Shown one piece after another: positions 46,089 to 64,000 of a stretch of 64,000 nt of DNA. Below the pieces are notes generated by a model. It had not been told where the DNA came from. It made no database searches and saw only the letters and a program-made list of their open reading frames with translations. Source of the stretch: Oligoflexia bacterium. Its GTDB lineage: Bacteria > Bdellovibrionota > UBA1018 > CAIPTA01. A program made the position numbers and the translations under genes. The stretch spans positions 1,130 through 65,129 of the forward strand of contig JAMLID010000002.1 in the NCBI GenBank assembly GCA_023954355.1, given 5' to 3'. How positions within the stretch are numbered: the first letter of the stretch is position 1; each line of letters starts with the position of its first letter.

Positions 46089-46817
46089 ATGAAATGCCTC
46101 CTATGTCAGTCAGAAATTCAAGAATTCCTTTCTTACGGAATACCAACAAAAGTAGGAAAGTGCCCAGAGTGTGGAGCAAAGCCTAGACATCGTGAGCTTG
46201 CCTGGTTTTTTATAGAAAAAATTAACCTTCCTGATGGATTCAAAGCTTTAGAGGTAGGGCCCTCAAAAGTTTCAACAAGAAAGTTTCTCAAATTACCAAA
46301 GTTCTCGAATGGAAAGTATACAGCAATTGATATTCGTTCTTTAAAACATCATGAATCTATTGCTTTACCTCATCGATTTATGAACATGGATGCAACTAAA
46401 ATGTCGTTTTCTGATTCTTGTTTTGACATTATTTTTTGCAATCACGTTTTGCCTTTCATTCGTTCAGATTACCAAGCAATTGCTGAAATTCATCGATGTC
46501 TAAAGGCTGATGGCATTGCTATTTTGAACACAAGCATTGAACTGGAAAAAACACTTCGATCTGAACAAGCAAGAGAGCTGTATCCAGAGAAGTATTCAAA
46601 AGAGTTTTTAGCAGAAAATGGCACTGAGTGGATATATGGAGATGATTTTTTTGAAAGAATAGAGGCAGCTGGTTTTTTTTATGAAAGAGTTCGAATAGAC
46701 CAGATGCTTCCTATTGAAAAAATCGAAGAAAATAAAATGCGCCCTCAGGGAGAGCTTTTTCTTTGTTTTAAATTTCAAGAAGCAAAAACTAAATTTTTAG
46801 AAAAACTATATGGATAA
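46089..46817 (+). CDS. Class I SAM-dependent methyltransferase with N-terminal zinc-ribbon (CxxC...CxxC)
   Basis: CLLCQ...CPECG. LEVGPS motif I-like. Confidence 0.55.
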   Translation: MKCLLCQSEIQEFLSYGIPTKVGKCPECGAKPRHRELAWFFIEKINLPDGFKALEVGPSKVSTRKFLKLPKFSNGKYTAIDIRSLKHHESIALPHRFMNMDATKMSFSDSCFDIIFCNHVLPFIRSDYQAIAEIHRCLKADGIAILNTSIELEKTLRSEQARELYPEKYSKEFLAENGTEWIYGDDFFERIEAAGFFYERVRIDQMLPIEKIEENKMRPQGELFLCFKFQEAKTKFLEKLYG

Positions 46818-47211
46818 ACAAGCACACCAGATTGTATTTTTTGATGGAGTCTGTAATCTTTGTAACGGCTTTATTGATTTTCTCATTTCAAGAGATTCAG
46901 AAGGCATATTTCAAGTAGCATCTTTACAGGGAGTGACTGCAAGAAGTTACGTTAGCCAATCAGCAAGAGATGACCTTCAATCTGTAGTATTATGGGCTCA
47001 GGGGCAAACCTATTCTCAATCTGATGCCATTTTGATGATTTTGCCTCAACTAGGAGGCGGCTGGTTTTTTATGAAGATGTTTTGGATTTTTCCAAAATTT
47101 ATTCGTGATTTTTTCTATCAACTTATTGCTAAGAATCGTTATCGTTTGTTTGGTAAAAAAGAGAGTTGTCGTTTGCCTACGAGAGAAGAGCGTAGCAGAT
47201 TCTTAGATTAA
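46810..47211 (+). CDS. DCC-family thiol-disulfide oxidoreductase (DUF393)
   Basis: FFDGVCNLCNGFIDFL matches the DCC motif. Confidence 0.7.
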   Translation: MDKQAHQIVFFDGVCNLCNGFIDFLISRDSEGIFQVASLQGVTARSYVSQSARDDLQSVVLWAQGQTYSQSDAILMILPQLGGGWFFMKMFWIFPKFIRDFFYQLIAKNRYRLFGKKESCRLPTREERSRFLD

Positions 47212-47221
47212 TATAGACTAT

Positions 47222-48343
47222 CTAGAAATTGAATGGCCTGTGAGCTCTTTGCAAGCCAAACCATTCTTCAAGGCTTGAAGTCGGTTTTCCTTCTTCATCA
47301 TATTCGATAAGAGCAAAAGTAAGTTTTGTAGATTGACCTAGATTTCTAAGATCTAAGTTAATCATCCTAGTCCAAGTTCCTGTATTGATATAGGTCTTTC
47401 CATCTCGATAATATCTTTGCATTGGGCCATGTGTGTGACCAAAAATCACAGTGTGAACTTGAGGATTTTTATCCAAAATTTCTTTTGCATCATCTTCTAA
47501 GCCATGAAACGGCGTTATCTCTTCTCTCATAATGGCTAAAGTGTTTCCTATGGTAGCTCTTCGTTTGGGGCTGTATAAAAAGCGCGTATGCAAAAAGTAA
47601 AATGTAGATAGAATAAAAAATTTGAATGTAAAAATAGGATCAAAAATAAAACCAAAAAGCATGAATACCTTTGCAGGCTTTACTTTATCAATATAATCAC
47701 GTTCCCATTTTAGACGATTAATAATTTTTATTACGTAGACAGATCCCCAGGGTAGGTAAAGTATGGGTTCTGGTAAATTGTCTTCTAAAAAAGGTTTAGA
47801 GTAGTTGGTAGTATGAACCGCTTCAAATTGATTTCCGTGGTGAATTTGAATACCTTCTGGGTAGTCTAAAAATTCGGTCTCAGTATTAACCCAAATTTTT
47901 TCTTTGGTCCAGCCGTCTCCACCTATTGTTTTACAAAACAATTCTTTAACAGCTGGAAAAAAGAATTCCATATCATGATTGCCAACGTTGTATAAAATTC
48001 GTTTTCCTGGTTTAGAAACAAAAGTTTGTAAGGCTGCAATTACTTCGTGGTGGCCCTGAAATATAGCTTGTAATTTTTCTAGGGCAGTTTCTTCGGTGAC
48101 GATATCTAAAAAGTCACCTTGGACAGGAACATTTAAAAAATCAAAAACATCGCCGTTTAAAATTAATTCTACTTCGCAGTGTTCACCGTACGGGCCACTT
48201 GAAAAATATTCTAAAAATTCACAGAATTCTCTGTCAAAGAAAAAGTCTTCATGTGGGTTTTGAATTCCATCTACAAACCGACCAGCAGATAAGTGCATAT
48301 CGCTGGTTATAACTTTTATTTTCTTTCGTTTGTATCGATCCAT
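47222..48343 (-). CDS. Calcineurin-like metallophosphoesterase
   Basis: GDVFDFLN, GNHDMEF and GHTHGP motifs. Confidence 0.65.
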   Translation of the reverse strand: MDRYKRKKIKVITSDMHLSAGRFVDGIQNPHEDFFFDREFCEFLEYFSSGPYGEHCEVELILNGDVFDFLNVPVQGDFLDIVTEETALEKLQAIFQGHHEVIAALQTFVSKPGKRILYNVGNHDMEFFFPAVKELFCKTIGGDGWTKEKIWVNTETEFLDYPEGIQIHHGNQFEAVHTTNYSKPFLEDNLPEPILYLPWGSVYVIKIINRLKWERDYIDKVKPAKVFMLFGFIFDPIFTFKFFILSTFYFLHTRFLYSPKRRATIGNTLAIMREEITPFHGLEDDAKEILDKNPQVHTVIFGHTHGPMQRYYRDGKTYINTGTWTRMINLDLRNLGQSTKLTFALIEYDEEGKPTSSLEEWFGLQRAHRPFNF

Positions 48344-48352
48344 ACAAAACTA

Positions 48353-49060
48353 TCATACCTTGTTGTTGCTATACTCGTGAATTTTTTTGTTTTGAAATAA
48401 TAGAAATCTATTACAGAAAGAATGTAAAATTTGATCGTCGTGAGAGGTGATTAAAATGGTTTTTCCGTCAGCCTGCCATTTTTTACAGGTTTCTAGAAAT
48501 TGTGTTTTAAAATCTATGTCTATATGGTTGAGGCTTTCGTCTAACAATAAAATATCAAACGAAGCTAATTGTAGACAAGCAAGTGGTATTTTTGCTCTCA
48601 TTCCTTCAGATAGCTGGCTTGTAGGGCTAAGTAATCGCTCGCTTAGACCAGCAATTTTTGCACATTCTAAAACCCGTTCTTCGGCTTCTTTGGCTTTGTA
48701 ACCAAATAATTGTAAACAGATTTGAAAATTCTTTTTTACCATTATGTCTTCGTATGCTCCAAATCCATGTGTTAATAATGCTAGTAGTTTTCCATCTACA
48801 AATAGATTACCAGAGTCAGCAACAGAGTTACCTGCTATGCATTTCAATAAAGTACTTTTACCCGAGCCATTTTTGCCAACTAAACCAACGCATTCACCTT
48901 TTTGAATAGAGATATTAATGTCTTCTAATACCGAAAAAGAAGGTTTATGCTGGCCAAGGGTTCTTATTAATTGTGCAATCGATCGAAAGAGTCCCGATTG
49001 TATGTAAAACGATTTATTTAGGTGTTGAATTTCTAAAGAGAGATTGCTTGCTGTATTCAT
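48353..49060 (-). CDS. ABC transporter ATP-binding protein, polysaccharide/O-antigen exporter (Wzt/KpsT) type
   Basis: Walker A GKNGSGKST, signature LSEGMRAKI, Walker B LLLDE. Confidence 0.8.
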   Translation of the reverse strand: MNTASNLSLEIQHLNKSFYIQSGLFRSIAQLIRTLGQHKPSFSVLEDINISIQKGECVGLVGKNGSGKSTLLKCIAGNSVADSGNLFVDGKLLALLTHGFGAYEDIMVKKNFQICLQLFGYKAKEAEERVLECAKIAGLSERLLSPTSQLSEGMRAKIPLACLQLASFDILLLDESLNHIDIDFKTQFLETCKKWQADGKTILITSHDDQILHSFCNRFLLFQNKKIHEYSNNKV

Positions 49061-49843
49061 TTATAGACAATCTCCAATTTTTCTCTCTGATTTTCGGAAG
49101 ATAAAGTATCCAAATAAAAAGACAGCAATAGATCCTAGAAAGATTTTTGCCATCGATAGAGGTACATCAAAACCATTTGCTCCGACGATATCTCTTATCC
49201 AGAGCATAAAAATAGTGAAGGGGTTCCATGAAAAAATGATGTCTGCCCATTTGCTACTGAAATGAGCCGGTAGATAAAAGATAGGCGTAGCAAAAGAGAG
49301 TAAGCGAAACATTATGTTCCAAAACGGAACAATATTTTTATGCACAACGCCAATGAAAGCAAAAATAAATCCTAGGCCTGCACAGAAAAAGTATTCAGAA
49401 AGTATTAATATAGGAATCTGAAAAAATTTTTCTCTAGGAAACATTTGAAAATACGCAGCTATGCATAAAATCAAACTAAGTTCTATAATGTAGGGGACAA
49501 ATACAGCGGCTGTTCTTGCTAAAATAAGAATTTCTTTTGGAAAGCTATACCCCATTACTAGTTTTTGACGATAGACCAGACTGCCAAATCCGGCAAGCGA
49601 GGCATTCATATAGAGATTCCATTGAACAATGCCTAAGAGTAAATAGACCCATGGGTTTGGTACGCCATGAAGAAAACGCTCTACGAATAAAGTATGAAAA
49701 ACTAAGAGCATCACGACATTATTGCAAAATGCTAAAGTAAAACCTAAAACGGTTCCTTGCTCCATGAGTGAAAATTCATTTTTAGCGAGCGTATAGCCTA
49801 AATTTAGTGACCAAGGATTTCCTAGAGATTGAAAGCGCTTCAT
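49061..49843 (-). CDS. ABC-2 type transporter permease (Wzm/KpsM-like)
   Basis: Six TM helices. Translationally coupled to the ATPase. Confidence 0.65.
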   Translation of the reverse strand: MKRFQSLGNPWSLNLGYTLAKNEFSLMEQGTVLGFTLAFCNNVVMLLVFHTLFVERFLHGVPNPWVYLLLGIVQWNLYMNASLAGFGSLVYRQKLVMGYSFPKEILILARTAAVFVPYIIELSLILCIAAYFQMFPREKFFQIPILILSEYFFCAGLGFIFAFIGVVHKNIVPFWNIMFRLLSFATPIFYLPAHFSSKWADIIFSWNPFTIFMLWIRDIVGANGFDVPLSMAKIFLGSIAVFLFGYFIFRKSERKIGDCL

Positions 49844-50899
49844 TTAGTCTTGATTCTCTTTGTTCATAAATTGAATAATATGGTTCGCATTTTTTTCACT
49901 ATTATCAGATAGGTGGATTTCATAAACTTTTGCTCTTGCAATAGCAGAACTCATGCTTAAGCTTCTTGAGAGTGCTGGTTTGGTGAGACCAATAAGTGAT
50001 TTCGCGCCATTTGATAATACGAGCTCGACGACTTGTGGTAACCCAAGGCCGACTACTAAATCTCTAAAAAGTGGTAGGGCTGCAGCACTCTTTTTAGAGC
50101 GAACGATCTTGGGTTCATTTAAAGTGCCGTGACGGATTCCTATAAAAATATGTTTAAGCGGAGCTTTATCTGTAGGTCTAGGTAAATTTTCTTCAGAAAG
50201 GCTTAAGGTAGAAACTAAAATTTTATCTCCATGTTTTCTTCTTGAAAACTCTCTGGTGCGTTCTTTCCATTCGTTTGGCAGGTTGGTGCCCTTTTTAAAA
50301 GAAAGAGAAAGTGGGAATGGGCGCAATCTACCCAGGCGGTCTATGATAGGACAATCATCAGAAAAAAGTCGTATACCTTCTTGAGAGACTAAGTGTTTTG
50401 CTAATGAGCTTTTTCCGCCTCCACTTGGGAGTAAAAATATAGCACCATGATTATTTTTATTCGCAATACCTAGTGCATGGATGCGGTGTAAACCCATTTG
50501 ATCTAAAAATTTTCCAATTTCAGTTTGCAAAAATAAATAGCTTATTTCTATTGCTAGATTGGTATTCTGCGATACGAGTGTTCCCGTACATGAGTTTATA
50601 TCTCTTTCGACAGTAAGTAATAGATCGTCTCCGTATTGAAAAACTTCTTTTTGCGAAAATTCAAATTTTATACATTCTGGAAATATTTTTGTAGCTGGTG
50701 CGTTAGGTTTTTCGCTGGGATCAATCGCACGTTCTTCTGTCTGAAGTTTTAGGTGAAACTTTGCATTGCCTTTCTTTTCAATTCGGTTAGTGAAATAGTC
50801 AAAATCAAAGGCTAGGGTTTTCCCGATTTTTCCTTCTAGAGATACGGATATTGAGTGTAAATCAAATCGTATGGGTGTAGTCTGAACAAGAGTATTCAT
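49844..50899 (-). CDS. HPr-kinase-related P-loop kinase (HprK C-terminal-domain homologue)
   Basis: GAIFLLPSGGGKSSLAKHLVSQEGIRLFSDDCPII follows the HprK pattern G.SG.GKS..A..L...G..L..DD...I. Confidence 0.6.
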   Translation of the reverse strand: MNTLVQTTPIRFDLHSISVSLEGKIGKTLAFDFDYFTNRIEKKGNAKFHLKLQTEERAIDPSEKPNAPATKIFPECIKFEFSQKEVFQYGDDLLLTVERDINSCTGTLVSQNTNLAIEISYLFLQTEIGKFLDQMGLHRIHALGIANKNNHGAIFLLPSGGGKSSLAKHLVSQEGIRLFSDDCPIIDRLGRLRPFPLSLSFKKGTNLPNEWKERTREFSRRKHGDKILVSTLSLSEENLPRPTDKAPLKHIFIGIRHGTLNEPKIVRSKKSAAALPLFRDLVVGLGLPQVVELVLSNGAKSLIGLTKPALSRSLSMSSAIARAKVYEIHLSDNSEKNANHIIQFMNKENQD

Positions 50900-50946
50900 T
50901 CCTAGAATTTAGGCCATGAGAACAAGGCTTTCAAGAAGGGAAACGC

Positions 50947-51975
50947 TTGGTAAAGAAAAAAAATCAAGAGAATCCGTCAATCAGTGTAGTGATGATTGCA
51001 CATAGAGATGTAGCACTCTTAAGGGCTGCGTTGACCTCAATCAAAAAACATTTTTTAAAGGGTAGATGGGAACTAATTCTAGTAAATAATGGTAATTATC
51101 CTGGAATTAGTGATGTGATTCAGTGGGCTGTGAACAACTTCACTCAAGAGGTAGTGGTTGTTGACACAAAAGAGACACAACCTGGTGCTGCTAGAAATCT
51201 CGGCGTTGCCAGAGCTAAGGGAAAAATTCTTTTATTTTTAGATGATGATATCGAATGCTTTTCTGATCTAGTCGCTGAAGTAGAGCAAATTTTTGAGCAA
51301 TATGCTATCTCGGTCGCTGGTGGTCCAAATTTAACTCCAAAAAATTCAAATTCTTTTCAAAAGGCTTCTGGATATGCCATGGAGTCTTTTTTTGGTGCTG
51401 GACCCATGTCTGCACGCTATGCAAAAAAGGGAGAAATGGAGTGTGACGAACATAGTCTAATTCTTTGTAATTTAGCGGTTCGTAGAGACGATTTTGTTCA
51501 GTTTAAAGGATTTCCCTTAGGGTTTGCCTCTAGTGAAGAAAATTACTTTATGCAGCAAGTGAGTTCGTCGGGCGGGGCAATGTTTTTCTCTGACCGTTTG
51601 GCCGTTTTTCACAAAAGAAGAGCAAACCTGAGTTCTTTTTTGCAGCAAATTGAAAAATACGCCCTAGGTAGAGCACAAAATTTATTAGTTTTTCCTCAGT
51701 CATTTTCTTTTTTGTATTTTATCCCTACTTTCTTTTTTTTCTATCTCATCTCTCTACCTTTCTTTAGAGAGCAAGCGTTCTACCTTTGGCCACTTTACAC
51801 CTATATGGGGCTTTCGTTTTTTAGTGCTATCAGCTTATGTTGGAGAAAAAAATCCATTTTAGCACTGGCTACATTTTTTCTCTTTCCGTTAATTCATATA
51901 GTGTACGGAAAAACCCTATTCATGGGTCTTTTATTTTGGTTTCGAAAAAGAAAGAGTTTAAATGCCCACGGTTAA
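50947..51975 (+). CDS. Family 2 glycosyltransferase with C-terminal transmembrane segment
   Basis: ISVVMIAH...LVNNG...DDD motifs. Four C-terminal TM helices. Confidence 0.7.
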   Translation: MVKKKNQENPSISVVMIAHRDVALLRAALTSIKKHFLKGRWELILVNNGNYPGISDVIQWAVNNFTQEVVVVDTKETQPGAARNLGVARAKGKILLFLDDDIECFSDLVAEVEQIFEQYAISVAGGPNLTPKNSNSFQKASGYAMESFFGAGPMSARYAKKGEMECDEHSLILCNLAVRRDDFVQFKGFPLGFASSEENYFMQQVSSSGGAMFFSDRLAVFHKRRANLSSFLQQIEKYALGRAQNLLVFPQSFSFLYFIPTFFFFYLISLPFFREQAFYLWPLYTYMGLSFFSAISLCWRKKSILALATFFLFPLIHIVYGKTLFMGLLFWFRKRKSLNAHG

Positions 51976-52127
51976 AAAAGCGGCGCTTACGTTTTTATTC
52001 GTAGCTTTTCTTTTGTGTGGATTTTATTGGATATACGTTGGCACGCAGTCGTTTGCATTTAAATTTGATTATATAACTAATATTTTAAGAAACAAAGGGT
52101 ATACGCTATTTAGATCATCCAAAAGCT

Positions 52128-54002
52128 ATGATAGAGAATTTAGTGGGTAAGTCACGAATAGTGACAACAATTACGTATGCTATAAATTATTATTTCTTTG
52201 GCTTATCTCTATCTAGTTTTCGTTACTTAAATTTCTTTATTCATTTTTTAAATACTCTTCTTATGGGATGGCTATTTTATCGATGGACAAAAAAAATTCC
52301 ATTTCTTGCAATGTCATTATTTTTGTTAGCTCCTATAACAGTGGAGTCAGTTATTTATCTTACTGGTAGGTCTGGATTACTTTCGACTTTTTTTGTTTTA
52401 TTGGCTTTAGCAATGCAGGGGTCTGTTTTTCTAGAAAAAAAACCACTTCTTCGAATTTTTACTTTTTGTTTAACAATGGGCCTTGCTGTTTTAAGCAAAG
52501 AAAATGCAGTGGCAATTTTATTATTAGTATTTTTAGTGCAGCCATTTGATAAAAAGCGCTATATAGAATCTTTCCCTTTAATTTCATCTATACTAATAGC
52601 ATTTAGTTTTATTTTATTTTCAAAATGGTCATACATAACAAATTCTGTGATGGGGATATTTAGAATTCATGGAGAATTATACGCCTTATCTTATGATCAG
52701 TTCTTACTTTTACAGCTTTCTTTGTGGCCAAAAATGTTTGCACTTCTTTTTAATCCATCATTAATGTCTATTGATCATTCTGTAGTATTGCCGTCATCCA
52801 TATTTTCTATAAATGTGGCACTAGGTTTTTCACTTCTTGTTTTTGGGATATTTTGTATTTATCAAAGCTTTAAAAAAATGCAGTTTGCATACTTATCTAT
52901 AGCGTGGTTTTTTATATGCTTATTGCCCACAAACTCTATCATTCCCGTATTTGACCCATTGGCAGAGCGGCATCTTTATATGGCAAGTATTGGAATCGCG
53001 TGGTTTATCTCATATTTTATTATGAACACGCCCTATTTAAAGAACGTATGGTTGGTTTTTTTTGTATTAAGTTTTTCGTTGGTTCCAATAGCGAAATCGC
53101 GCGCGCAAGATTGGAGAAGTGCGTACTCGTTATGGTCTGATGCGTATGAAAAGTATCCTTCAAAATATCGTATTGCACTAAATACAGCCTATTATGCATC
53201 TTTAGAGTTAGAAGATAGAAGGCCTGCAATAAAAATTGCATGTAAGTTATTAAACGAAACACCTCCTGGTGATTTAACCTATGAGCAGCAAGAGCTTTTA
53301 CTCAGCTTCATAAAAGGTAATTTAGGTATTGTAATGAATAATCTAAATTCTAAAACTAGTATAAATGATATAGATAAATATTGTTTATTGAATGGCTTTT
53401 GGAAAGATCTTTTTAAGCTAAAATTGACACTACCTTGGCAAGAGAAAGACGAGTGGTTAGATCAGTATGAGAAAACATATAATGAGTATTCTAGTAAAGA
53501 ACCTATCAATTTAAGAGCATCTTTAAGCTATTATGCTCATACATTAGAAGTTTATTTGGGCTTTTTTTATGTTCGTCTAGAAGACTGGCAAAATGCGCGC
53601 TTACAGTTTGAAAAGGTTTTGTTTAATTATAAAGACCGCCACTCGCCTTATTGGCAAATTAGAGAAAACTTAGGTGATGCTTATCGCAAGCTAGGCTTAT
53701 ACGAGAAGGCAGCTGAGCAGTATGAATTATGTATGTATCAGTACAAAGTGTTTAAGAGGTTTCCAAAATCTCTCTTAGAGAAAATGATAGAAAACTATAA
53801 ACAGTTAAATGATCTAGTGCGCGCAAAGGATTCTTTAGGGGAAATGATTCGAGTATATACAGATGATCCAAGAGTTCGTGATGCTTATGCTACTGCTTTA
53901 GAAGAATTAAATGATCGTCATGCTGGTTCGCAGAGAAAAGAGGCGAATTTTTATTTGCGCAACGCAAGAAACCTAGAAGAGTACGAAATTATAAGTCCAT
54001 AG
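52128..54002 (+). CDS. Polytopic membrane protein (about 11 TM) with C-terminal TPR-like helical repeats; GT-C/PMT-ArnT-like candidate
   Basis: Hydrophobic N-terminal 400 aa, soluble helical C-terminus. No catalytic motif assigned. Confidence 0.45.
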   Translation: MIENLVGKSRIVTTITYAINYYFFGLSLSSFRYLNFFIHFLNTLLMGWLFYRWTKKIPFLAMSLFLLAPITVESVIYLTGRSGLLSTFFVLLALAMQGSVFLEKKPLLRIFTFCLTMGLAVLSKENAVAILLLVFLVQPFDKKRYIESFPLISSILIAFSFILFSKWSYITNSVMGIFRIHGELYALSYDQFLLLQLSLWPKMFALLFNPSLMSIDHSVVLPSSIFSINVALGFSLLVFGIFCIYQSFKKMQFAYLSIAWFFICLLPTNSIIPVFDPLAERHLYMASIGIAWFISYFIMNTPYLKNVWLVFFVLSFSLVPIAKSRAQDWRSAYSLWSDAYEKYPSKYRIALNTAYYASLELEDRRPAIKIACKLLNETPPGDLTYEQQELLLSFIKGNLGIVMNNLNSKTSINDIDKYCLLNGFWKDLFKLKLTLPWQEKDEWLDQYEKTYNEYSSKEPINLRASLSYYAHTLEVYLGFFYVRLEDWQNARLQFEKVLFNYKDRHSPYWQIRENLGDAYRKLGLYEKAAEQYELCMYQYKVFKRFPKSLLEKMIENYKQLNDLVRAKDSLGEMIRVYTDDPRVRDAYATALEELNDRHAGSQRKEANFYLRNARNLEEYEIISP

Positions 54003-54050
54003 TATTTGGGGAATTGACAAGCGCAGGATTATTCAGGAGAGTATTGATTT

Positions 54051-54338
54051 ATGGGGCAGCTAGAGGGTTTAAAATTTCAAAAAGCAAAAAACATTCACTG
54101 GAAAAGTGTAAATGGTGAAGCAGTTTTGCTGCATATTGGCAGCGGTGACTACTATGCACTGGATAAGGTTGGAACCTTCTTATGGGGGCAGATGGCAGAG
54201 CGTAGCACTGCTATAACTGATTTGATTGATTCCTTAGTTATGGAGTATGATTGTAACAGGGATCAGGCGATGCGGGATGCCAAGGAATTTTGCGGAAGCT
54301 TATTAGCGGAACGTTTGTTAGAAACCACGGAAGAGTAG
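54051..54338 (+). CDS. PqqD-family protein (RiPP recognition element-type peptide chaperone)
   Basis: 95 aa. WKSVNGEAVLL...DYYALDKVGTFLW...LIDSL...Y.....A..D...F...L matches PqqD family architecture. Confidence 0.6.
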   Translation: MGQLEGLKFQKAKNIHWKSVNGEAVLLHIGSGDYYALDKVGTFLWGQMAERSTAITDLIDSLVMEYDCNRDQAMRDAKEFCGSLLAERLLETTEE

Positions 54339-54340
54339 GG

Positions 54341-54451
54341 ATGGGAATGGCTAAAGAAAATGTCAAAAAAAGCGGTAAAGCAAAAAAGCAGTACCAAAAA
54401 CCAACGCTTACAAAGTACGAAAAAATTAAAAGAGTACACGCGTACTTCTAG
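54341..54451 (+). CDS. Candidate leader/precursor-peptide ORF, 36 aa (MGMAKENVKKSGKAKKQYQKPTLTKYEKIKRVHAYF). Alternative reading frame to the annotated start of the downstream peptidase.
   Basis: ATG 3 nt after the PqqD stop with GGAAGAG upstream. Contains YQKPTL (YxxPxL-like / PqqA-like KP motif). Overlaps frame of 54360-55028. Confidence 0.2.
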   Translation: MGMAKENVKKSGKAKKQYQKPTLTKYEKIKRVHAYF

Positions 54452-55028
54452 TTTTAAAGCACCACCTAGTCGATTAAGCAAAGACAAGGTTCACCAAATT
54501 GCTATGGAGTTGGCGCAGTTAGAATATACGAAAAGCTCTAAGCACTCGCAAACTGCTATAATCGAAGGCGTATCTATGTGGCCTCTTTTGCGGCCAGGCT
54601 ATTTAGCTAAGTATAAAAGAGGAAACCTAAATCAATTAAACGAAGGCGATATAATTGTTATTCGCAGTCGAGGTAGAAAATCTGAGAAGCATATTGCGAT
54701 TCATCGCTTATTGGGCAGAATAGGTCCCTATTTTTTAGAGTCCGGAGACAATACATATACGGCTGCGCTAATTCATGAAAAAGATATTTTGGGAAAAGTG
54801 GTAGAAGTTTTCTCTCATGATGGAAGCAAAGTGAAACTTCCCAAATTTAAGCCTGGCAAAAAATCTTCCTTTTTTACTTCTTGCGCACATTTGTTTTTTT
54901 ATTTACATGAAAGTAAAAATCAGGTTTTGGGTAGTAAAAAGAGTAAAATTTTGTGGAATGCCTCAGTGCTTTATAGAAAAAGCTTATCAGTGCTTGGGCT
55001 AAAAGTACCTAATCTACCACCTCTCTAA
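54360..55028 (+). CDS. S24/S26-family serine peptidase (LexA/signal-peptidase fold). The catalytic domain begins near residue 50, so the true start may be the internal Met (AMELAQ).
   Basis: EGVSMWPLL (GxSMxP Ser motif) and GDIIVIR. Confidence 0.5.
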   Translation: MSKKAVKQKSSTKNQRLQSTKKLKEYTRTSSFKAPPSRLSKDKVHQIAMELAQLEYTKSSKHSQTAIIEGVSMWPLLRPGYLAKYKRGNLNQLNEGDIIVIRSRGRKSEKHIAIHRLLGRIGPYFLESGDNTYTAALIHEKDILGKVVEVFSHDGSKVKLPKFKPGKKSSFFTSCAHLFFYLHESKNQVLGSKKSKILWNASVLYRKSLSVLGLKVPNLPPL

Positions 55029-56613: not shown

Positions 56614-56792
56614 CTAAAGCATTGAACGTTTTCCTCTGGTATAGCTGTATCCGTGTAAGCGGGGTCGATATTAAGTTGAATGCTTTGCTTTTTACCTTAT
56701 TTTTTAACTATGTGAGGGATAAAATCTGTGAAAATACTCCAAGAAACTCAGCTTTTAGGTGTTGCTATACAATTTGTGGATATAATAGAAGT

Positions 56793-58151
56793 ATGGGTGC
56801 CTCTTCGCTCAAAACCTGTGCGCATATCTATTTTTTGTTAGCGATTATCTTTTTTGCTAGTGGTCGTAGTGCCTTTTCTGAAGATGGTGGCGAAAACACT
56901 TTTTATATAGATGCAAATCGTACAGAATCTATGGAGGAGGAAGATCTAGAAAACACTATTTCACCTGATCAAGAGACTAGTGTTGTTGATTCTATGGATA
57001 AAAACTATTTATATCCAGTAGCAAATCATGCGGGTGCTAGTGATCAACCAGGGGATATAGGAAGCTTTTTAAAAAAAGGAAAAGTCCCAAAATATATTAG
57101 AATTAATATCAATGGATATAACGTTAGAAAAACACCTGAGTTTGAATCAGCGAAAACAGATAATTTAGATTTTAAATCTGAAAAGGGATCACTGTTCGCG
57201 GTAACAAGAGTACAGCCTTTAGAAAAAGGGGTTGCAGTAGGAATTTATGTAGGCGGAGAAGAGCGTTGGATCTATGTACCCAACTGGAGAAAAGATGATT
57301 TTCAATTTTGTGAAACCGAAGCATGTTACGAGGTAATTTCTAAGGTATTAAATATTTTAAACAGTAAACCAGAAGTATCTGCCGAATCTGAGACAGAATG
57401 TGTTGTTCCTCTGGCAGAAGAGACATCGATTGCAAAAGAAATCGCATCTATACCATTAGAAAATATTCCAGTGCCCAAGTGGCGACCACCGTATACAAAA
57501 AAACTAGACGAAAATATTCCTTCAGAGAATAGATATTATCGACCTTTAAGAGTCACACCTCTATGGGAGCGTGCTAGATCTAGGGATGGAAAGCAATTAA
57601 CGAGAATGGCTAGAGAGTCTCTAGCAACATATGGCAGAACGTTGTTAGCGAAAACAGCTTTGAGAGACCAACGATCGTGGTGTCCGAATTATTCTCGTCT
57701 TACCTCTTCAGAGCGAGAAGAGTTTTGGATTCATTTATTGAATGGAATGGCAAAATATGAGTCAGATTTTGATTTAAGCCCAGCACCATATGATGAAGAA
57801 AGAAGCATCAATGTATCGAGAGGGCGAATTAAAAAAAATGATTATAGTATGGGCTTTTTTGCTTTATCTTATGGTGGTACAGAGCAGCGTGCCTACAGAA
57901 ATTTTTGCAAATTCTCTTGGTCAAGAGATAAGCATAAAGATGTGAGTGACCCAAGCCTAACAATTCATGATCCAAAAAAACAAATGGATTGTGCTGTGGG
58001 AATTTTAAACCACTTAGTAGGGCAAGATGGAGCCATTGGAGGTAGTGTTCGCGGAGGTGCAAGATGGTGGTCTGTATTAAGGGATTCAAATGTTCGAGGG
58101 TCTAGAGGTATTAAATCATCGTTAAAAAGGTACAGGCCATGTTGGGGGTAA
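56793..58151 (+). CDS. Secreted protein, possibly a lytic transglycosylase-like C-terminal domain. Start placed at the internal ATG (MGASSL...) with a TATAAT box upstream.
   Basis: Signal peptide after the internal Met. YESDF...SMGFFALS resembles the SLT ES.F...GLMQ block. Weak. Confidence 0.35.
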   Translation: MGASSLKTCAHIYFLLAIIFFASGRSAFSEDGGENTFYIDANRTESMEEEDLENTISPDQETSVVDSMDKNYLYPVANHAGASDQPGDIGSFLKKGKVPKYIRININGYNVRKTPEFESAKTDNLDFKSEKGSLFAVTRVQPLEKGVAVGIYVGGEERWIYVPNWRKDDFQFCETEACYEVISKVLNILNSKPEVSAESETECVVPLAEETSIAKEIASIPLENIPVPKWRPPYTKKLDENIPSENRYYRPLRVTPLWERARSRDGKQLTRMARESLATYGRTLLAKTALRDQRSWCPNYSRLTSSEREEFWIHLLNGMAKYESDFDLSPAPYDEERSINVSRGRIKKNDYSMGFFALSYGGTEQRAYRNFCKFSWSRDKHKDVSDPSLTIHDPKKQMDCAVGILNHLVGQDGAIGGSVRGGARWWSVLRDSNVRGSRGIKSSLKRYRPCWG

Positions 58152-58158
58152 GAAAAAT

Positions 58159-58575
58159 ATGAAAATTTTAATAACGACCATTTTATTATTAATACTATTT
58201 CAAGGCACAGCTCAAGCAGAAGCTTTTATACTAAGTTGCGGAATAGGGGCAGACCAAGGAATCAAAGCAGCAGAGCTGTCATTAGTTGATGATCCTGAGA
58301 AAACTCTCGAAATTTATGAAAAAGGGAAAGTCTTACAAAAAGGTGAGTATGGCACTGCTTCGCGAGGCGAGCTTTGGATTGTAACTATTTTTGGGCAAAG
58401 AGGAGCTCTTGATCGAAAATATGAGATTAACCTTAACAATCAGACGGTCAAAGAATTTATTATTGACGATAAAGACGTCAAGCCTTTAGGAAAAACTAAG
58501 AAATGTAAGATTCATGAAACTAGTGCGCTTAGGTCTTTTGATAAACTAAAAAAATCGTTGCTTGGGCGCTCGTAA
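58159..58575 (+). CDS. Secreted hypothetical protein
   Basis: Signal peptide. Confidence 0.4.
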   Translation: MKILITTILLLILFQGTAQAEAFILSCGIGADQGIKAAELSLVDDPEKTLEIYEKGKVLQKGEYGTASRGELWIVTIFGQRGALDRKYEINLNNQTVKEFIIDDKDVKPLGKTKKCKIHETSALRSFDKLKKSLLGRS

Positions 58576-60750
58576 GCGTAAAAGAGTTTCTTTATGAGCT
58601 TTGGCAATGTGATCTAAACCTCTCTTGCCCCACTTAAAAGCAAATCGAGACATACCGTCTTCTAAGAAATCATCTCGCTTAAAGAGGTTTCCTTCAAAGC
58701 TCATAGAACCAAAATGGTGAACGTATATATCTTTTGCCCATACCAGTTTTAATCCTAGGTCTTCAGTTCTCAAGCACAGATCATCGTCCTCAAAGTAGCC
58801 GATTCCAAACTCTTCTCCAAACAACCCAACTTTTTCAATTGTGGCTCTTGGCAAAACCATACATAGACCACTGATTTTTTTAACTCTCTCCCATGATCCT
58901 TGATTTTCTGATTCTAATTTTTCGTTATATTGGAAAAATTCTCTTAGGCCGTTATAGCTTGGCTTAAAAAGAGCTTGACCTGATTCTGTATTTGCAGAAG
59001 GGCCCAAAATACCGAGTCTATCAATATGCTGCAAATGTTTTTCAAAGCAATTTAGCCAGTGAGGGGGAACGATAGTGTCATTATTTAAGATTACAATATT
59101 TTTTCCTCGGGCGGCTCTTATCCCTACATTATTCCCTTTAGCAAAACCTAAATTTTCTTTATTGCGAATTACTTTTAAATTTTTTATCAAGCCAGCTTTA
59201 TCTGCGGTGCCATCTGTAGAGTTATTGTCGACCAAAATATATTCAGCTTTGATCTCAGGATGTAATTTAGCTGCGTGAGATAAAGATCTTAGACATAATT
59301 CAGTAAATGCCCACTGGTTAAATGTTAAAACTATAACAGAAAAGTCTGGGTTTTTATCTGGTTTTTCGAAGCTTGGTGCATCCAGTGAAATCTCATGGTC
59401 TCTTTTAACAAGGGTATATTCGATCTTTTTCAGAGGCGATGCTATTTTTTTCATTTCAGAAAGAACAATTTGTTGTAAATAATTTTTTGAGAAGCGTTTT
59501 TCTACGTAGGATTTTCCATTCTTATGAAGTTTATTCCATAGCGGTTTATCTGTATGTAATCGCTTTATAGCATTAGCAAAATCTTCTGCTGTATCAGCTA
59601 CTAAGCAGTTTTCTTCATTTGTTAAACCCATTCCTAATGCACCTAAGTGGGTGGTCACTACGGGTACACCATAGGCTAAGGCCTCACCGATTTTTCCGTT
59701 CATGCCTGCTCCGAACAAAATGGGAGCAATACTGATTCTTGCACTATCTAAATATGGTTTTGTGCTTGGTACATAGCCTGTTACTTTAAACATCTCTTTA
59801 TGTGCACCAAACTTACCAATGGTACGTACAATTTTTGGTGGATTAGAGCCCACCAGTGAAATAGGGATATTCGTATTGGCTAAAAATGGTGCAACCTCGT
59901 GTTTTAGGAAAATAGCTGAGCTTACATTTGGGTTATGATCAAAGTTTCCTATAAAAATACACCCATTTCTTTCTTCAAATTTTGGTAAAGACGCTTTTTT
60001 ATGCTCAGGCATTCTATGGATATTAGGTATAAAAAGTGTTTCTAAATTTGGACAGTGTTTTTTTAATTCATTTTTATCATCTTCACTCACAACAACTACA
60101 GCGTCGCATTTTTCGTATACTTTAAGTTCATGCTCTCGAACATGATCAGCATATGTACGATGGTCTAGTACTTTTTGTTTATGGGCAGAGAGTTTTGGTT
60201 TTTTCTTCTCATGTTTAGTGTTTACTAAAAATCTAACCTCTGACTCTAGATAGTTAGCCTGTCTGGCTAGACGTCTGAAGTGTAAGTCGACAGAATCACA
60301 TACAACTTTTGCCCACGGTTGGTATTGTCTAATTTGATCGATATATTGATCCATTAAATAAAAAAACTCGACCCAGATCATGTCGTAGACTTTTTGAGAT
60401 AAAAAAGGCCGAATGTCATAATCATTTGTTGGGCGTATGGTGAAAGGTACAGGTTCAGCAAAATTTAGTGCATTTATGTTGATAGAGCGAAGGTCATCAA
60501 TATATTTTTGGTCTAAGAAATTAACTTTACTGAGATTGAAACTAGAGTCTCTCACAATATAATCTAAACGTTTTTCTTTAATATGCCATGCTGTATGGGT
60601 AGTAGAGAGAAAATCAATGTCGTACTCGTCTCTCAAAATATCTAAAATTTGAAAAAGACGATAATCGCCACTGGCTCTATCATGAAGCGGTAGGGTTTTA
60701 GCTAGGACTAAAATTCTTTTCTTTTCTTTCATGGCAGAAACGCCCTCCAA
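58546..60750 (-). CDS. Bifunctional glycosyltransferase: N-terminal GT-B (GT4-like) domain plus C-terminal GT2 domain
   Basis: GKIGEALAYGVPVVTT (GT4 E-x7-E region). C-terminal FSVIVLTFNQ...LVDNNSTDGT GT2 motifs. Confidence 0.7.
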   Translation of the reverse strand: MEGVSAMKEKKRILVLAKTLPLHDRASGDYRLFQILDILRDEYDIDFLSTTHTAWHIKEKRLDYIVRDSSFNLSKVNFLDQKYIDDLRSININALNFAEPVPFTIRPTNDYDIRPFLSQKVYDMIWVEFFYLMDQYIDQIRQYQPWAKVVCDSVDLHFRRLARQANYLESEVRFLVNTKHEKKKPKLSAHKQKVLDHRTYADHVREHELKVYEKCDAVVVVSEDDKNELKKHCPNLETLFIPNIHRMPEHKKASLPKFEERNGCIFIGNFDHNPNVSSAIFLKHEVAPFLANTNIPISLVGSNPPKIVRTIGKFGAHKEMFKVTGYVPSTKPYLDSARISIAPILFGAGMNGKIGEALAYGVPVVTTHLGALGMGLTNEENCLVADTAEDFANAIKRLHTDKPLWNKLHKNGKSYVEKRFSKNYLQQIVLSEMKKIASPLKKIEYTLVKRDHEISLDAPSFEKPDKNPDFSVIVLTFNQWAFTELCLRSLSHAAKLHPEIKAEYILVDNNSTDGTADKAGLIKNLKVIRNKENLGFAKGNNVGIRAARGKNIVILNNDTIVPPHWLNCFEKHLQHIDRLGILGPSANTESGQALFKPSYNGLREFFQYNEKLESENQGSWERVKKISGLCMVLPRATIEKVGLFGEEFGIGYFEDDDLCLRTEDLGLKLVWAKDIYVHHFGSMSFEGNLFKRDDFLEDGMSRFAFKWGKRGLDHIAKAHKETLLRLRAPKQRFF

Positions 60751-61847
60751 AATTCTTTTGCCTCTGCATCAGCAGCGCTTTGACTTAGGTGAAAGTGGCT
60801 TCTGAACTCACTGGCTAATTGCTTAACAGATTTCATTTTGCTCATTTTTTTCCACATTGCTAATTGATCGCCAGAAAGATTTACAATTCCTTTTTGGGGA
60901 ACATAAATAGTCCATTCTGAATCTTTTACAGGCCAACCAATAGATTTTTTTGGATTTTTTCTTTTCTGTGGGCACTTTTTATAAGCACTTTCATAGCCAG
61001 CGCGTATACCAGAAGAAAAAGCCACTGCAATCTCTTCTATTTCTAGTCTAGTATCTGTTGCTTGGCTTAAATTTGGATGCTTTCGTATTCGTTGAAAAGC
61101 ATCTAATGAGGCTTCTAAAGCGCTTAGGCGTGGTTCGTCTGATAAAAATTGATAAGTTCTAAGTAGCCACGCCTCACCCATACCGTAGCGTTCAAACTGG
61201 TTAATGATTTCACTACGTGTATTTCTTCTATAGTGAGTAATTTTAGCAGCCTCGTTATATTCAATCTGAAAACCTTGCAAAACAGCTCTCCAGCACCAGT
61301 CAATATCCATAGCACCAGCTGCAGCTTCTGAGAAAATACCCACAGTGTGAAAAACAGAATGTTTAACAGCTAAATTACAGGTTGGTCCCCAGGGTAGTGC
61401 ATGGGCAAGTGCCTTAGCAGTTCGCTCTGAGTGTCCCTCAAATAAAAGGCAAGCTAGTTTTCCATAATTTGTAGGGGCATCAAAAATTTTAGAATTTGTA
61501 CTGCCTACAGAAATGTCTACTTTCTCTAAATAAGTTTCATGTTCGCGAATAAGATTTTTTGAAGGAAGGGTGTCTGCATCTAAAAATATTAGATTTTGTC
61601 CTTTTGCTTTTTTTACACCTGTGTTCAGTGGTTTAGCGAAGCCTAGTTTTTTTTCTATAATCAAATGCCAGTTTTTGAACTTTGATTTTTTAAAAAAACT
61701 TGTAAGAATTTTTTTACTGTTATCTGTAGAACCGTTGTCTACAAAAATGACTTCTTGATTTTTAGATAATTGAATCTCTAAAGAGAGTAAAAGGTCGGGT
61801 AGAAACTTTTCTTCATTTAAGACAGGAATAATAATTGACGTTTTCAT
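60729..61847 (-). CDS. Family 2 glycosyltransferase
   Basis: SIIIPVLNE...FVDNGSTDNS...DAD motifs. Confidence 0.75.
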   Translation of the reverse strand: MKTSIIIPVLNEEKFLPDLLLSLEIQLSKNQEVIFVDNGSTDNSKKILTSFFKKSKFKNWHLIIEKKLGFAKPLNTGVKKAKGQNLIFLDADTLPSKNLIREHETYLEKVDISVGSTNSKIFDAPTNYGKLACLLFEGHSERTAKALAHALPWGPTCNLAVKHSVFHTVGIFSEAAAGAMDIDWCWRAVLQGFQIEYNEAAKITHYRRNTRSEIINQFERYGMGEAWLLRTYQFLSDEPRLSALEASLDAFQRIRKHPNLSQATDTRLEIEEIAVAFSSGIRAGYESAYKKCPQKRKNPKKSIGWPVKDSEWTIYVPQKGIVNLSGDQLAMWKKMSKMKSVKQLASEFRSHFHLSQSAADAEAKEFWRAFLP

Positions 61848-63601
61848 ATTCTTAGCTCTGGACGTTCTTCAAAAAATCTATCTTTCATTGTGTTCATTTC
61901 CATTCGTAAAAACGGAGTTAAATTAATCCATATATCTGTGGATAGGGTTTTAGACTCTGGTAGTTCTCTATTTTTTCGTCTAAGCGTTTCCATTTGAGCT
62001 TTAATGCAACTTGCTCTCTCTGGAACAGAGTTTTGGTATTGGCCAATTAAGTCAAAGACCAATGACCACATTTTTTCCTCTTCTTCAAATTGTGCTTTTA
62101 AGTAGGGCGCTATTTTTGCTTTTAAGTGCTCAACTCTTTTGGGATACCGTTGGCCGTAAGATTTTAAAGTTTCAAAGAAATCGGTAGAGATTTCTTTGTG
62201 TTCATTTGCAAGACGTAGACCTAGCACTAAGGCTACCATTTTTTCTAAAAAGTGTTCTAGGTTTACAGGTTGAAAGCGTAGTACAAAGCTGAGCTCGGCA
62301 AACGATTTTAGTATTACTTGTTTTGGAAGTCGAGTAATTGGTGAAACATAGGTTTTAGTTTCTAAATTTAAAGAATCACTTAAATAGATTTCTTCGTGCC
62401 CATAAAATGAGTGAAATGGAGTATCTAATAGAGAAGTTTTCTCTAACTCATGGAATGTTTTTTTCGTCAGTGGCATGGCTACGCTAAAGCGATCGAAAGA
62501 AAAACTTACATCGCGTAAATCTTTTAGTAGCGTCTCTGTGTCAGCAAGAGAGGGGCTACTAGAGAGTGGAAAATACATATGAGTTGTGCTTTCAGAAAGA
62601 ATGCAGCGCTCGATAATGTTTTGATGTCTTAAGAGCATTCTTTCTGCAAAAAGCTGACGTACAGAAAGTGAATATGGGTCTTTTGCTTCAGGAATAGAAT
62701 TATAGTTTACTGTCCAATCACTATCGATCATTTCTTCACTTCTATTTTGTAAATAGTCTGCAATTTCATCGAGCAAGTGAATTGAATGATTAACTAACTT
62801 AGAAAAAAGAGAAAAAGGCTCTGCAGAGAAGAGAGGTGGTTTTAGCAGTAGAATATTTTCTATTTCATTAGCTTTAATTTCGAACTTACCTAAGTTTAAA
62901 GACTGAAGAAATTGTAATCGCCCTGGTGCCCATAGAGACTCGAGTTCTGCTTTATTTTTAATAAAAACAGTTGCGTGCATTCTCATGATATCAATAGCAG
63001 CTTTTGTTGCATTTCGTAAATGTATGGCTCCGTACTGATATTCTTGAAGTTGTTGATGAAAGGCTTCTTCTCTAAGTTTTAAAACCGGCTGTAATAGATC
63101 CCAGTAGTGTTTTAGCGCTTCGCTGAAGGCATCTCTAGCATCGGGTAGTGTGCTAATATTCCATTCTCGAATAAAATCTTTCCCAAATAAAACTTTCCAT
63201 GAAAAACGAGCTTCATATGCTCTTATGGTTGGCGTTTTGAGCCAGTTTTTAAGTTCATTGTGGTCGCCCATAAGAACTTCACCCCAGAAGGGAAAAAGTA
63301 TTCTCCATTTATGGTACTTGACCCAAAAGTTTTTCAGAAACTCCATTTCAAGCTCTGACGGAACCGTTGAAAGCACTAAGAAAAAATCTAAATCACTAGC
63401 GGCGGTTACGGCTTCATGCCTGCCAGCGCCTCTGCGTAAGTATACTGTTTGTAATAAATCTTTATGGATACGCTTTGCTTCTCGTTTAGAAAAAAAAGCA
63501 AATGCGCGTTCTCCGACTTGATACCACTTGGTATAAATTTGCGATACTAATGGGATTCGTTTCAGGGCAATAGCCTGCTGTTGGAGTTCAGATTTTTTCA
63601 T
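61844..63601 (-). CDS. Polymerase-beta-fold nucleotidyltransferase-domain protein with large C-terminal helical region
   Basis: GAGRHEAVTAASDLDFFLVL matches the G[SA]-x9-13-D.D nucleotidyltransferase motif. Confidence 0.5.
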   Translation of the reverse strand: MKKSELQQQAIALKRIPLVSQIYTKWYQVGERAFAFFSKREAKRIHKDLLQTVYLRRGAGRHEAVTAASDLDFFLVLSTVPSELEMEFLKNFWVKYHKWRILFPFWGEVLMGDHNELKNWLKTPTIRAYEARFSWKVLFGKDFIREWNISTLPDARDAFSEALKHYWDLLQPVLKLREEAFHQQLQEYQYGAIHLRNATKAAIDIMRMHATVFIKNKAELESLWAPGRLQFLQSLNLGKFEIKANEIENILLLKPPLFSAEPFSLFSKLVNHSIHLLDEIADYLQNRSEEMIDSDWTVNYNSIPEAKDPYSLSVRQLFAERMLLRHQNIIERCILSESTTHMYFPLSSSPSLADTETLLKDLRDVSFSFDRFSVAMPLTKKTFHELEKTSLLDTPFHSFYGHEEIYLSDSLNLETKTYVSPITRLPKQVILKSFAELSFVLRFQPVNLEHFLEKMVALVLGLRLANEHKEISTDFFETLKSYGQRYPKRVEHLKAKIAPYLKAQFEEEEKMWSLVFDLIGQYQNSVPERASCIKAQMETLRRKNRELPESKTLSTDIWINLTPFLRMEMNTMKDRFFEERPELRI

Positions 63602-64000
63602 ATTAAAAATTGTTTTTTTCTCAACTCTAGAGTGAGTTCGTCAATATCACGCAATACTTCAAAGCTTTTGGGCTGTTTTAACGCTTTGGCGGCATCTTCT
63701 GATTGTCCACCTTTAGATTTGATTCTCCAGATAGTCCAGGCACTAGAGTTCAAAGAAAATCGCTCTCTTGTTTTGGGTCGATACAAACAGAGTTCTCCAT
63801 CTAATTTAATATTTGCAGGATACTTCCAATAAACCCAGCCACGCTCTTGAAGCTTTCGATAGCTTGCAGGAACTTTTGCTAATAAATTTTTTGGAGGTGT
63901 TCCTTTTCTTAAGGGATGAAACTTTGGATTAGGATGAGGGTATCGAAATTTTGAAGAAATCCATCCTTTTTGTTTAGAGGCAAGAACGACTAAATCAATT
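63598..64000 (-). CDS. Hypothetical protein, 3-prime part only (the ORF continues past the window edge)
   Basis: Open frame to position 64000 on the minus strand. No motif recognised. Confidence 0.4.
   Translation of the reverse strand, partial: IDLVVLASKQKGWISSKFRYPHPNPKFHPLRKGTPPKNLLAKVPASYRKLQERGWVYWKYPANIKLDGELCLYRPKTRERFSLNSSAWTIWRIKSKGGQSEDAAKALKQPKSFEVLRDIDELTLELRKKQFLI

Follow-up and report, generated by a model that had tools for sequence, protein, structure and literature searches.

We analyzed a 64,000-nt stretch of DNA (the window) from a metagenome-assembled genome (MAG) of an Oligoflexia bacterium in the phylum Bdellovibrionota, and focused on a module at 47222-63601 in which genes for handling a small peptide stand among genes for glycan assembly. 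The locus is probably the Bdellovibrionota counterpart of the linear polyphosphorylated peptide (LPP) type of pathway for peptides that are made on ribosomes and then modified after translation (RiPPs), built into an operon set for glycan assembly and export. The observations behind this reading are a peptide gene and the constraint on it, a conserved gene set, the folds and catalytic motifs of the encoded enzymes, and a motif for a RiPP recognition element (RRE) that keeps the register of the LPP leader. The original prediction for this block had named an ATP-binding cassette (ABC) exporter, glycosyltransferase (GT) domains, two large polytopic membrane proteins, a metallophosphoesterase, an HPr-kinase-related kinase, a PqqD-family protein, a 36-codon open reading frame (ORF), a serine peptidase and a nucleotidyltransferase, and all of these components were found in place within 47222-63601. 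It had interpreted them as a system in which an RRE directs the modification of a small peptide or protein that is then exported, an architecture that it did not recognize as described. The first half of this interpretation is supported as the best reading, because the block is syntenic, the peptide is under purifying selection and holds YxxPxL, the RRE resembles lasso B1 proteins, and one GT2 has its own PqqD-like domain. The second half fails, because Popov et al. had described the core gene set under the name of the LPP family in May 2026 (Nat Commun; PMC13381572).

The peptide gene (54341/54347-54451, + strand) lies between the PqqD and peptidase genes and encodes 34-36 residues, M(GM)AKENVKKSGKAKKQYQKPTLTKYEKIKRVHAYF. 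Its start in the window is likely 54347 (MAKEN...), because the consensus start of the orthologs fits there. In the orthologous loci, a small ORF was called or callable in the same gap between the PqqD and peptidase genes. The C-terminal 19 residues, Y[Q/R]KPTLTKYEKIKRVHAYF followed by the stop codon, were identical in nine of nine distinct Bdellovibrionota loci, and the Lys-rich N-terminus was variable (consensus MTKENAKK.GKAKK). Over the last 63 nt of the gene, we counted 15-17 differences between the window and the other loci and 7-11 among the other loci themselves; despite many synonymous changes, the sole amino acid difference in the 19-residue motif was at the Q/R position. Because the motif is invariant while the enzymes flanking it are only 41-79% identical across loci, the comparison indicates that the small ORF is a real, translated gene under strong purifying selection. 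An alternative role as a regulatory upstream ORF of the peptidase gene was rejected, since this amino acid invariance under synonymous drift and the RRE-binding motif argue that a peptide is the product. Scanning metagenomes with the degenerate leader pattern Y-x-KPTLTKYEKI returned four further loci, all with the same C-terminus, and none of the four encoded a variant core peptide. No curated family covers the peptide; its sole match was a weak one to DUF5972 (E = 0.058).

The leader-like motif that had been suspected in this ORF proved to be a conserved YxxPxL (Y18, P21, L23; YQKPTL), the motif bound by the RREs of lasso peptides and LPPs. In a gapless alignment with LppA, Y18 falls at −16, P21 at −13, L23 at −11, I29 at −5 and H33 at −1. 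Ala34-Tyr35-Phe36 then occupy +1 to +3, so that the peptide stops exactly at the position of the LppA phospho-serine.

The stand-alone RRE gene (54051-54338, + strand) encodes a 95-aa, lasso-B1-like protein of the PqqD family, as predicted (Pfam PqqD, 1.4e-14). It matched the NCBIfam model lasso_PqqD_Bac with 2.6e-14, below the 80-bit cut-off. When its profile was compared with the PDB, TbiB1 was the best match (2.3e-12), followed by PbaB1 (1e-10), and LppB scored 0.066; in a direct hhalign comparison, the RRE family and LppB aligned with E = 2.5e-6. In that alignment the invariant residues D38 and D76 correspond to N33 and D70 of LppB, which contact the leader: N33 fixes the kinked backbone at the leader proline, and D70 hydrogen-bonds the leader tyrosine (PMC13381572).

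The peptidase gene (54504-55028, + strand) encodes a soluble signal peptidase I-like (SpI-like) protein. Its ORF opens at 54360 and would overlap the peptide gene; the start is probably at or near 54504, because the orthologs are 153-154 aa long and the alignment agrees. The predicted S24/S26 peptidase could be assigned to the archaeal/SipW type of S26, with the Ser-His-Asp motifs GxSMWP, HR and GDN invariant in nine orthologs. Profile signals for S24/S26 were weak, and the best curated model was the archaeal-type signal peptidase I, TIGR02228 (1.2e-6; 28.5 bits against a cut-off of 51.85). The protein has no membrane anchor and carries a conserved C-terminal extension of approximately 70 residues. 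We aligned the nine orthologs by hhalign with LppS and two LPP SpI proteins from Supplementary Data 1 of PMC13381572, and obtained a probability of 91% and E = 1.1e-6, with the catalytic triad S24/H67/D82 matching S29/H68/D93; pairwise BLAST against the LPP SpI proteins aligned the serine box only. One Bdellovibrionales SpI, accompanied by two RRE genes, is listed in the same Supplementary Data 1 (PIP88705.1, SSN cluster 30). It does not resemble the window peptidase in sequence and may represent a second SpI/RRE system in the phylum.

The module is organized in five transcription units between 47222 and 63601. Unit 1 (50899 down to 47222, − strand) encodes the kinase, the ABC-2 permease, the ABC ATPase and the metallophosphoesterase; unit 2 (50947-55028, +) a membrane-tailed GT2, a GT-C protein with tetratricopeptide repeats (TPR), the PqqD protein, the 36-codon ORF and the peptidase; unit 3 (55009-56613, −) a 534-aa polytopic protein; unit 4 (56622-58575, +) ORFs of 509 and 138 aa; and unit 5 (63601 down to 58546, −) the 585-aa nucleotidyltransferase, a 372-aa GT2 and a 734-aa GT4-GT2 protein. 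The predicted co-occurrence of peptide-handling and glycan genes was borne out by neighbourhood comparison. Gene order and orientation recur in L002/L003/L008, L004, L009, L010, L015 and the P0013 locus, and three short contigs (L016-L018) hold fragments of the same arrangement. This conservation extends to the metallophosphoesterase, ABC ATPase, ABC-2 permease, kinase, membrane-tailed GT2, GT-C/TPR protein, PqqD protein, peptide, peptidase, lysozyme-like protein, small secreted protein, GT4-GT2, RRE-bearing GT2 and nucleotidyltransferase. Because the whole block is syntenic in at least nine Bdellovibrionota loci, the comparison supports the view that the peptide-handling genes are not chance neighbours of the glycan genes. 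Whole-module synteny holds even where the kinases are only 41-46% identical. The cluster is rare and the family small: all named carriers were Bdellovibrionota, Bacteriovoracia or Oligoflexia MAGs, a scan with the kinase profile found seven loci in 185,579 species genomes, and clusters in a set of 5.8 billion proteins numbered about 26 for the close kinase homologs, 41 for the nucleotidyltransferase and about 50 for the GT2.

A PqqD-like, or RRE, domain forms the C-terminus of the 372-aa GT2 (60729-61847, − strand; Glycos_transf_2, 2.5e-24). Its last ~70 residues aligned by hhalign with the full-length stand-alone RRE family (E = 0.008, 70 columns in register), and BLASTP of this C-terminus against the stand-alone RRE gave no alignment. 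Six of 42 orthologs matched Pfam PqqD (best 2.4e-7), and the ortholog in the P0013 locus has a precomputed PqqD match. The orthologs and the profile comparison thus support the presence of a PqqD-like domain in this GT2. Fusions of an RRE with a PF00535 glycosyltransferase had been noted in a 2025 survey, with no function given.

The kinase gene (49844-50899, − strand) encodes a 351-aa P-loop protein of a family without a curated model. Fold search on the predicted structure bore out the suspected relationship to HPr kinase by returning the HprK/PEPCK fold. Against TIGR04352 it scored 21.3 bits (cut-off 200), the best match among the orthologs being 2.4e-6, and an HPr-rel-A system (TIGR04352/TIGR04353) was rejected on this score, far under the cut-off, and on the missing hallmark genes. 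The nucleotidyltransferase gene (61844-63601, − strand) encodes a 585-aa protein of an uncurated family, for which the same kind of search confirmed the predicted polymerase-beta fold, with ANT, GlnE, MNT and DrrA as structural neighbours. These are enzymes that nucleotidylylate hydroxyl groups, often on tyrosine. PDB sequence and profile searches with the nucleotidyltransferase and the kinase profile gave no useful match.

The exporter was recognized, as predicted, as a Wzm/Wzt-type pair. The ATPase (48353-49060, − strand; Pfam ABC_tran, 5.7e-21) is of the Wzt/TagH type; its best specific NCBIfam matches were galactan Wzt/RfbE (3.4e-28) and TagH (9e-26), both under their cut-offs, and it has no C-terminal glycan-binding domain. 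The Wzm/TagG-like ABC-2 permease (49061-49843, −; Pfam ABC2_membrane, 1.1e-8) is 61-66% identical across loci. The same operon ends with the metallophosphoesterase gene (47222-48343, −; 373 aa). Its Pfam matches (Metallophos, Metallophos_2) were weak, yet all five canonical motifs, DxH, GDxxD, GNHD, H and GHxH, could be read and are invariant in five orthologs. It is by far the most conserved enzyme of the module, with 75-79% identity across loci, and has a hydrophobic insert at about residues 225-258 and an invariant C-terminal HR.FNF; no relative was found in the PDB by sequence or profile search.

Pfam profile searches also bore out the predicted three GT2 domains and one GT4 domain. Besides the RRE-bearing GT2, they belong to a bifunctional GT4-GT2 protein (58546-60750, − strand; 734 aa, 58-67% identity; Glyco_trans_1_4 9.5e-21, Glycos_transf_2 7.3e-20) and to a GT2 with a C-terminal membrane tail (50947-51975, +; Glycos_transf_2 4.5e-16). 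The gene for the latter is divergent from the kinase gene, and the pair is retained even in the distant loci L011-L014. Downstream of it lies the gene for a GT-C (PMT_2-like) polytopic glycosyltransferase with a TPR tail (51962-54002, +), whose orthologs of 683-695 aa carry PMT_2. In the window this gene is split by a frameshift in a AAACAAAGGG run near 52085-52095, as judged from the frame change in tblastn: the first ~53 residues of the orthologs match a 62-aa ORF (51962-52150) in a frame other than that of 52089-54002. The frameshift therefore reflects either an assembly error or a pseudogene. An initiating phosphoglycosyltransferase (WecA/WbaP/TagO type) was not found in the module proteins searched and may be encoded elsewhere in the genome.

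We compared the module with the LPP system, whose core consists of the SpI-like peptidase LppS, the discrete RRE LppB, the HprK-like kinase LppK, the NTP_transf_5 protein LppN and an MsbA-like pump (PMC13381572). The LPP clusters (LppA/K/B/S/D/N) have no cyclase and sit in capsular polysaccharide loci of Bacillota; their leader motif is YxxPxVLxHQxIxFET, followed by xxS (PMC13381572). LppK polyphosphorylates Ser3, and LppS needs LppB to present the substrate before it cleaves after T-1; the authors state that the family is restricted to Bacillota (PMC13381572). In both systems a discrete RRE, an HprK-fold kinase, a SipW-type Ser-His-Asp leader peptidase, a nucleotidyltransferase and an exporter occur together among polysaccharide genes, with no cyclase, and the leader is of the YxxP type, in a common register that puts Ile at −5. 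Some LPP neighbourhoods contain metallophosphoesterases as well (Supplementary Data 1). There are also differences: the window comes from Bdellovibrionota; its peptide ends at +3, whereas LPPs carry a variable core of 10-170 residues; it has RVH in place of FET and Phe in place of Ser3, and what it has in common with the LPP motif is limited to Y(−16), P(−13), I(−5) and hydrophobicity at −11. In addition, the nucleotidyltransferase shares a superfamily with LppN and not the NTP_transf_5 family, and the module always includes glycosyltransferases, among them the GT2-RRE, as well as the GT-C/TPR protein and a lysozyme-like protein.

A second point of comparison is the paeninodin type of lasso peptide, in which HprK homologs phosphorylate the C-terminal serine of the precursor; in pseudomycoidin, a nucleotidyltransferase adds hexoses to that phosphate. 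These clusters likewise combine a B1-type RRE, an HprK-like kinase, a nucleotidyltransferase and a YxxPxL/WxxPxL leader. Unlike them, the window has neither a lasso cyclase nor a B2 cysteine protease, its core is far too short for a lasso, and its C-terminus is Phe instead of Ser. The original prediction had stated that no lasso cyclase, YcaO, radical-SAM or LanB/C enzyme is present, and none was found among the module proteins or when the ten largest upstream ORFs were scanned.

Based on these comparisons, we propose the following pathway. The peptide is translated as 34-36 residues, and its YxxPxL motif (Y18, P21, L23) would be bound as a beta-strand by the lasso-B1-like RRE and probably also by the RRE-like domain of the 372-aa GT2. 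The HprK/PEPCK-fold kinase may then phosphorylate a hydroxyl near the peptide C-terminus, most likely that of Tyr35, since the peptide ends exactly where LPPs have their phospho-serine; Thr22, Thr24 and Tyr26 are alternative candidates. By analogy with the hexoses added by PsmN in pseudomycoidin, the nucleotidyltransferase and the RRE-bearing GT2 would add a nucleotide- or sugar-containing group at the phosphorylated site, which the GT4-GT2 protein may extend. The SipW-type peptidase, with its substrate presented by the RRE as in the case of LppS, would remove the leader by cutting within R31-Y35; the LPP register would put the cut after His33, leaving Ala-Tyr-Phe. The product would be exported by the Wzm/Wzt-like ABC-2 pump, the membrane-tailed GT2 and the GT-C/TPR protein may decorate it in the periplasm, and the metallophosphoesterase may trim phosphate or pyrophosphate links. 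The predicted end product is a very small phospho-glyco-peptide or a glycan with a peptide stub.

Several points weigh against this proposal. The invariant part of the peptide holds no serine, and in the PDB profile scores given above LppB ranks behind the lasso B1 proteins as a relative of the RRE. The nucleotidyltransferase is not of the LppN family, with none of 38 orthologs matching NTP_transf_5 at E ≤ 1. The C-terminus of the window's own 372-aa GT2 is under significance for Pfam PqqD (E = 0.23). The exporter is a two-component ABC-2 system instead of an MsbA-like pump, and Wzm/Wzt-like export normally concerns lipid-linked glycans. LppK itself accepted serine only, and the S3T and S3Y variants were not phosphorylated; LppN was silent in the Bacillota system, where a connection of LPPs to the surrounding polysaccharide genes is unproven (PMC13381572).

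A more far-reaching reading, which we regard as unlikely, is that the invariant peptide acts as a primer made by the ribosome. In that case, the phosphorylated Ala-Tyr-Phe stub would serve as the acceptor for a phosphate-linked glycan built in the cytoplasm by the GT2-RRE and GT4-GT2 proteins and exported by the Wzm/Wzt-like pump, and the peptide would thus prime a surface glycoconjugate with no need of a lipid carrier. If true, this would also account for the location of LPP and paeninodin-type clusters among polysaccharide genes.

The strongest alternative, although an unlikely one, is that two systems stand side by side without a chemical link: an ordinary phosphate-containing surface glycan (O-antigen, capsule or teichoic-acid-like), to which the kinase, nucleotidyltransferase, phosphoesterase, GTs, GT-C and ABC-2 exporter would belong, and a separate minimal RiPP unit of RRE, peptide and SpI. 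It draws on the relatives of the kinase and the nucleotidyltransferase, which also count against our proposal. Distant kinase homologs (30-39% identity; L001, L005, L007, L011, L012, L014) have no PqqD, peptide or SpI gene within 10 kb, and they retain the membrane-tailed GT2 in divergent orientation, in many cases along with genes for a PMT_2 GT-C and a nucleotidyltransferase-like protein; the kinase family is evidently older than the peptide part of the module. The N-terminal domain of the nucleotidyltransferase recurs in 497 representative proteins, and large proteins of 0.7-2.5 kaa combine it with Beta_helix/NosD repeats (P0176, P0179, P0180, P0183, P0187, P0192). Because of these RRE-less loci and Beta_helix/NosD fusions, the two enzymes may work on a glycan instead of the peptide. 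The similarity of the exporter to Wzt/TagH fits the same view, as does the occurrence of Bacillota LPP clusters in capsule loci without a demonstrated link (PMC13381572).

The facts on the distant homologs would also be expected if the kinase and nucleotidyltransferase join the peptide to a glycan via phosphate, as the analogy with pseudomycoidin suggests. Moreover, an uncoupled arrangement sits poorly with a GT2 that carries its own RRE-like domain, with peptide genes that lie in the middle of the GT2/GT-C operon and are syntenic in every full locus, and with the finding of no initiating phosphoglycosyltransferase among the block proteins searched; a unit of RRE, peptide and peptidase alone would also have no modifying enzyme. 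The exporter does resemble the Wzm/Wzt and TagGH systems in pairing an ABC-2 permease with a Wzt/TagH-like ATPase (under the equivalog cut-offs) next to cytoplasmic GT2/GT4 enzymes, whereas no initiating phosphoglycosyltransferase was found in the window locus and its Wzt has no carbohydrate-binding domain. To our knowledge, no glycosyltransferase operon of an O-antigen, capsule or teichoic-acid locus has been reported to include an RRE gene together with genes for a precursor peptide and an SpI-like peptidase.

Among the more distant loci, no credible YxxP-type small ORF was found in L019 and L020, which hold divergent nucleotidyltransferase orthologs, or in the distant kinase loci. In L019 (10001-16115), a nucleotidyltransferase ortholog (39% identity) is accompanied by a PqqD gene and by GT4-GT2; where the peptidase would be expected, a membrane protein of 233 aa is encoded, and there is no YxxP peptide. 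In the high-GC MAG FW305_bin.15 (L013:375-3937), a B12-binding radical-SAM-like gene and a PqqD gene adjoin GT2-kinase-GT4 genes, so that the kinase/GT2 pair may here serve another kind of peptide system.

We consider it improbable that the peptide is not a substrate at all and acts as an RRE-bound adaptor, regulator or scaffold, for example as a subunit for assembling or gating the glycan machinery, or as a follower-type peptide with a functional, variable Lys-rich N-terminus. All 19 C-terminal residues are invariant, as would be more usual for a protein-protein interface than for the core of a RiPP; the variable part is N-terminal, there is no serine acceptor, and one motif could bridge the two RRE domains or be an object of competition between them. 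On the other hand, a peptidase that is catalytically intact by its motifs and homologous to the LPP leader peptidase is always encoded beside the peptide, the Lys-rich N-terminus resembles the N-terminal part of lasso and LPP leaders, and the peptide register fits the LPP leader up to +3. The B1-like RRE and the lasso-type YxxPxL leader would fit a lasso-peptide cluster in decay, from which the cyclase and the B2 protease have disappeared, but this is very improbable and was rejected: the cyclase-less gene set is itself conserved in nine loci, with a peptide ending 13 residues past the motif leucine and kept under purifying selection, and no Asn-synthase-like or transglutaminase-like gene occurs in the module or the ten largest upstream ORFs scanned.

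We also considered mycofactocin and PQQ, RiPP-derived small molecules that arise from the C-terminal end of a carrier peptide. The likeness lies in a short conserved peptide with a PqqD-type RRE and in a predicted leftover of only 2-3 C-terminal residues including Tyr; the module differs in having no radical-SAM enzyme and no MftE/PqqF-type peptidase. The best NCBIfam match of the GT2 enzymes was the mycofactocin glycosyltransferase MftF, at 82.8 bits against a cut-off of 280, which is generic GT2 similarity. With this score far under the cut-off and the radical-SAM hallmark genes missing, a mycofactocin system was rejected.

Both predicted large polytopic proteins are present, the GT-C protein with its TPR tail (main ORF at 52128-54002) and the 534-aa protein (55009-56613, − strand). 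The latter has no Pfam or NCBIfam match and no ortholog in any syntenic locus, and it appears to be a window-specific insertion outside the conserved module. Two genes had gone unnamed in the original prediction. One encodes a secreted lysozyme or lytic-transglycosylase-like protein (56793-58151, +), whose ORF opens at 56622 (509 aa) and whose true start is probably M58 (56793), giving a signal peptide. Its residues 310-497 match PDB 6ta9, an 'SLT domain-containing protein' (2.9e-15) that is presumably the Bdellovibrio lysozyme DslA; orthologs carry Pfam Glucosaminidase, and the gene has the same position in L004, L009, L010, L015 and L018. The other encodes a small secreted protein of 138 aa (58159-58575, +) with a signal-peptide-like N-terminus and orthologs in L010, L015 and L018.

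The genes upstream of 47222 are housekeeping genes (CysRS, SdhA, MTHFR, DeoC and others), and Rfam and tRNA scans detected no RNA elements in the region. Directly upstream of the module, at 46089-47211 (+), lie genes for a DCC1-like thiol-disulfide oxidoreductase and for a class I S-adenosylmethionine (SAM) methyltransferase whose N-terminus bears a Cys-rich motif; this pair does not adjoin the module in orthologous loci.

Taken together, we regard the locus as a Gram-negative LPP variant with a minimal, invariant precursor, another exporter and nucleotidyltransferase, and hard-wired glycosyltransferases. LPP-type peptides were known in Bacillota, and the window would extend the family outside its stated distribution. 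The analysis also adds two enzyme families without a curated model, the HprK/PEPCK-fold kinase and the 585-aa nucleotidyltransferase, together with a strongly conserved metallophosphoesterase. In the work that defined LPPs, the nucleotidyltransferase step was not activated and the link to polysaccharide was speculation only (PMC13381572). The Bdellovibrionota version is more tractable, with fixed syntenic glycosyltransferases, one of which has its own recognition domain, and a peptide that amounts to a leader plus three residues; because the peptide sequence is invariant, there is essentially one substrate to test. The locus hints that LPP-type peptides are joined to sugars, and its compact, testable gene set could be used to learn if such peptides become phospho-glycosylated or act as primers for glycans.

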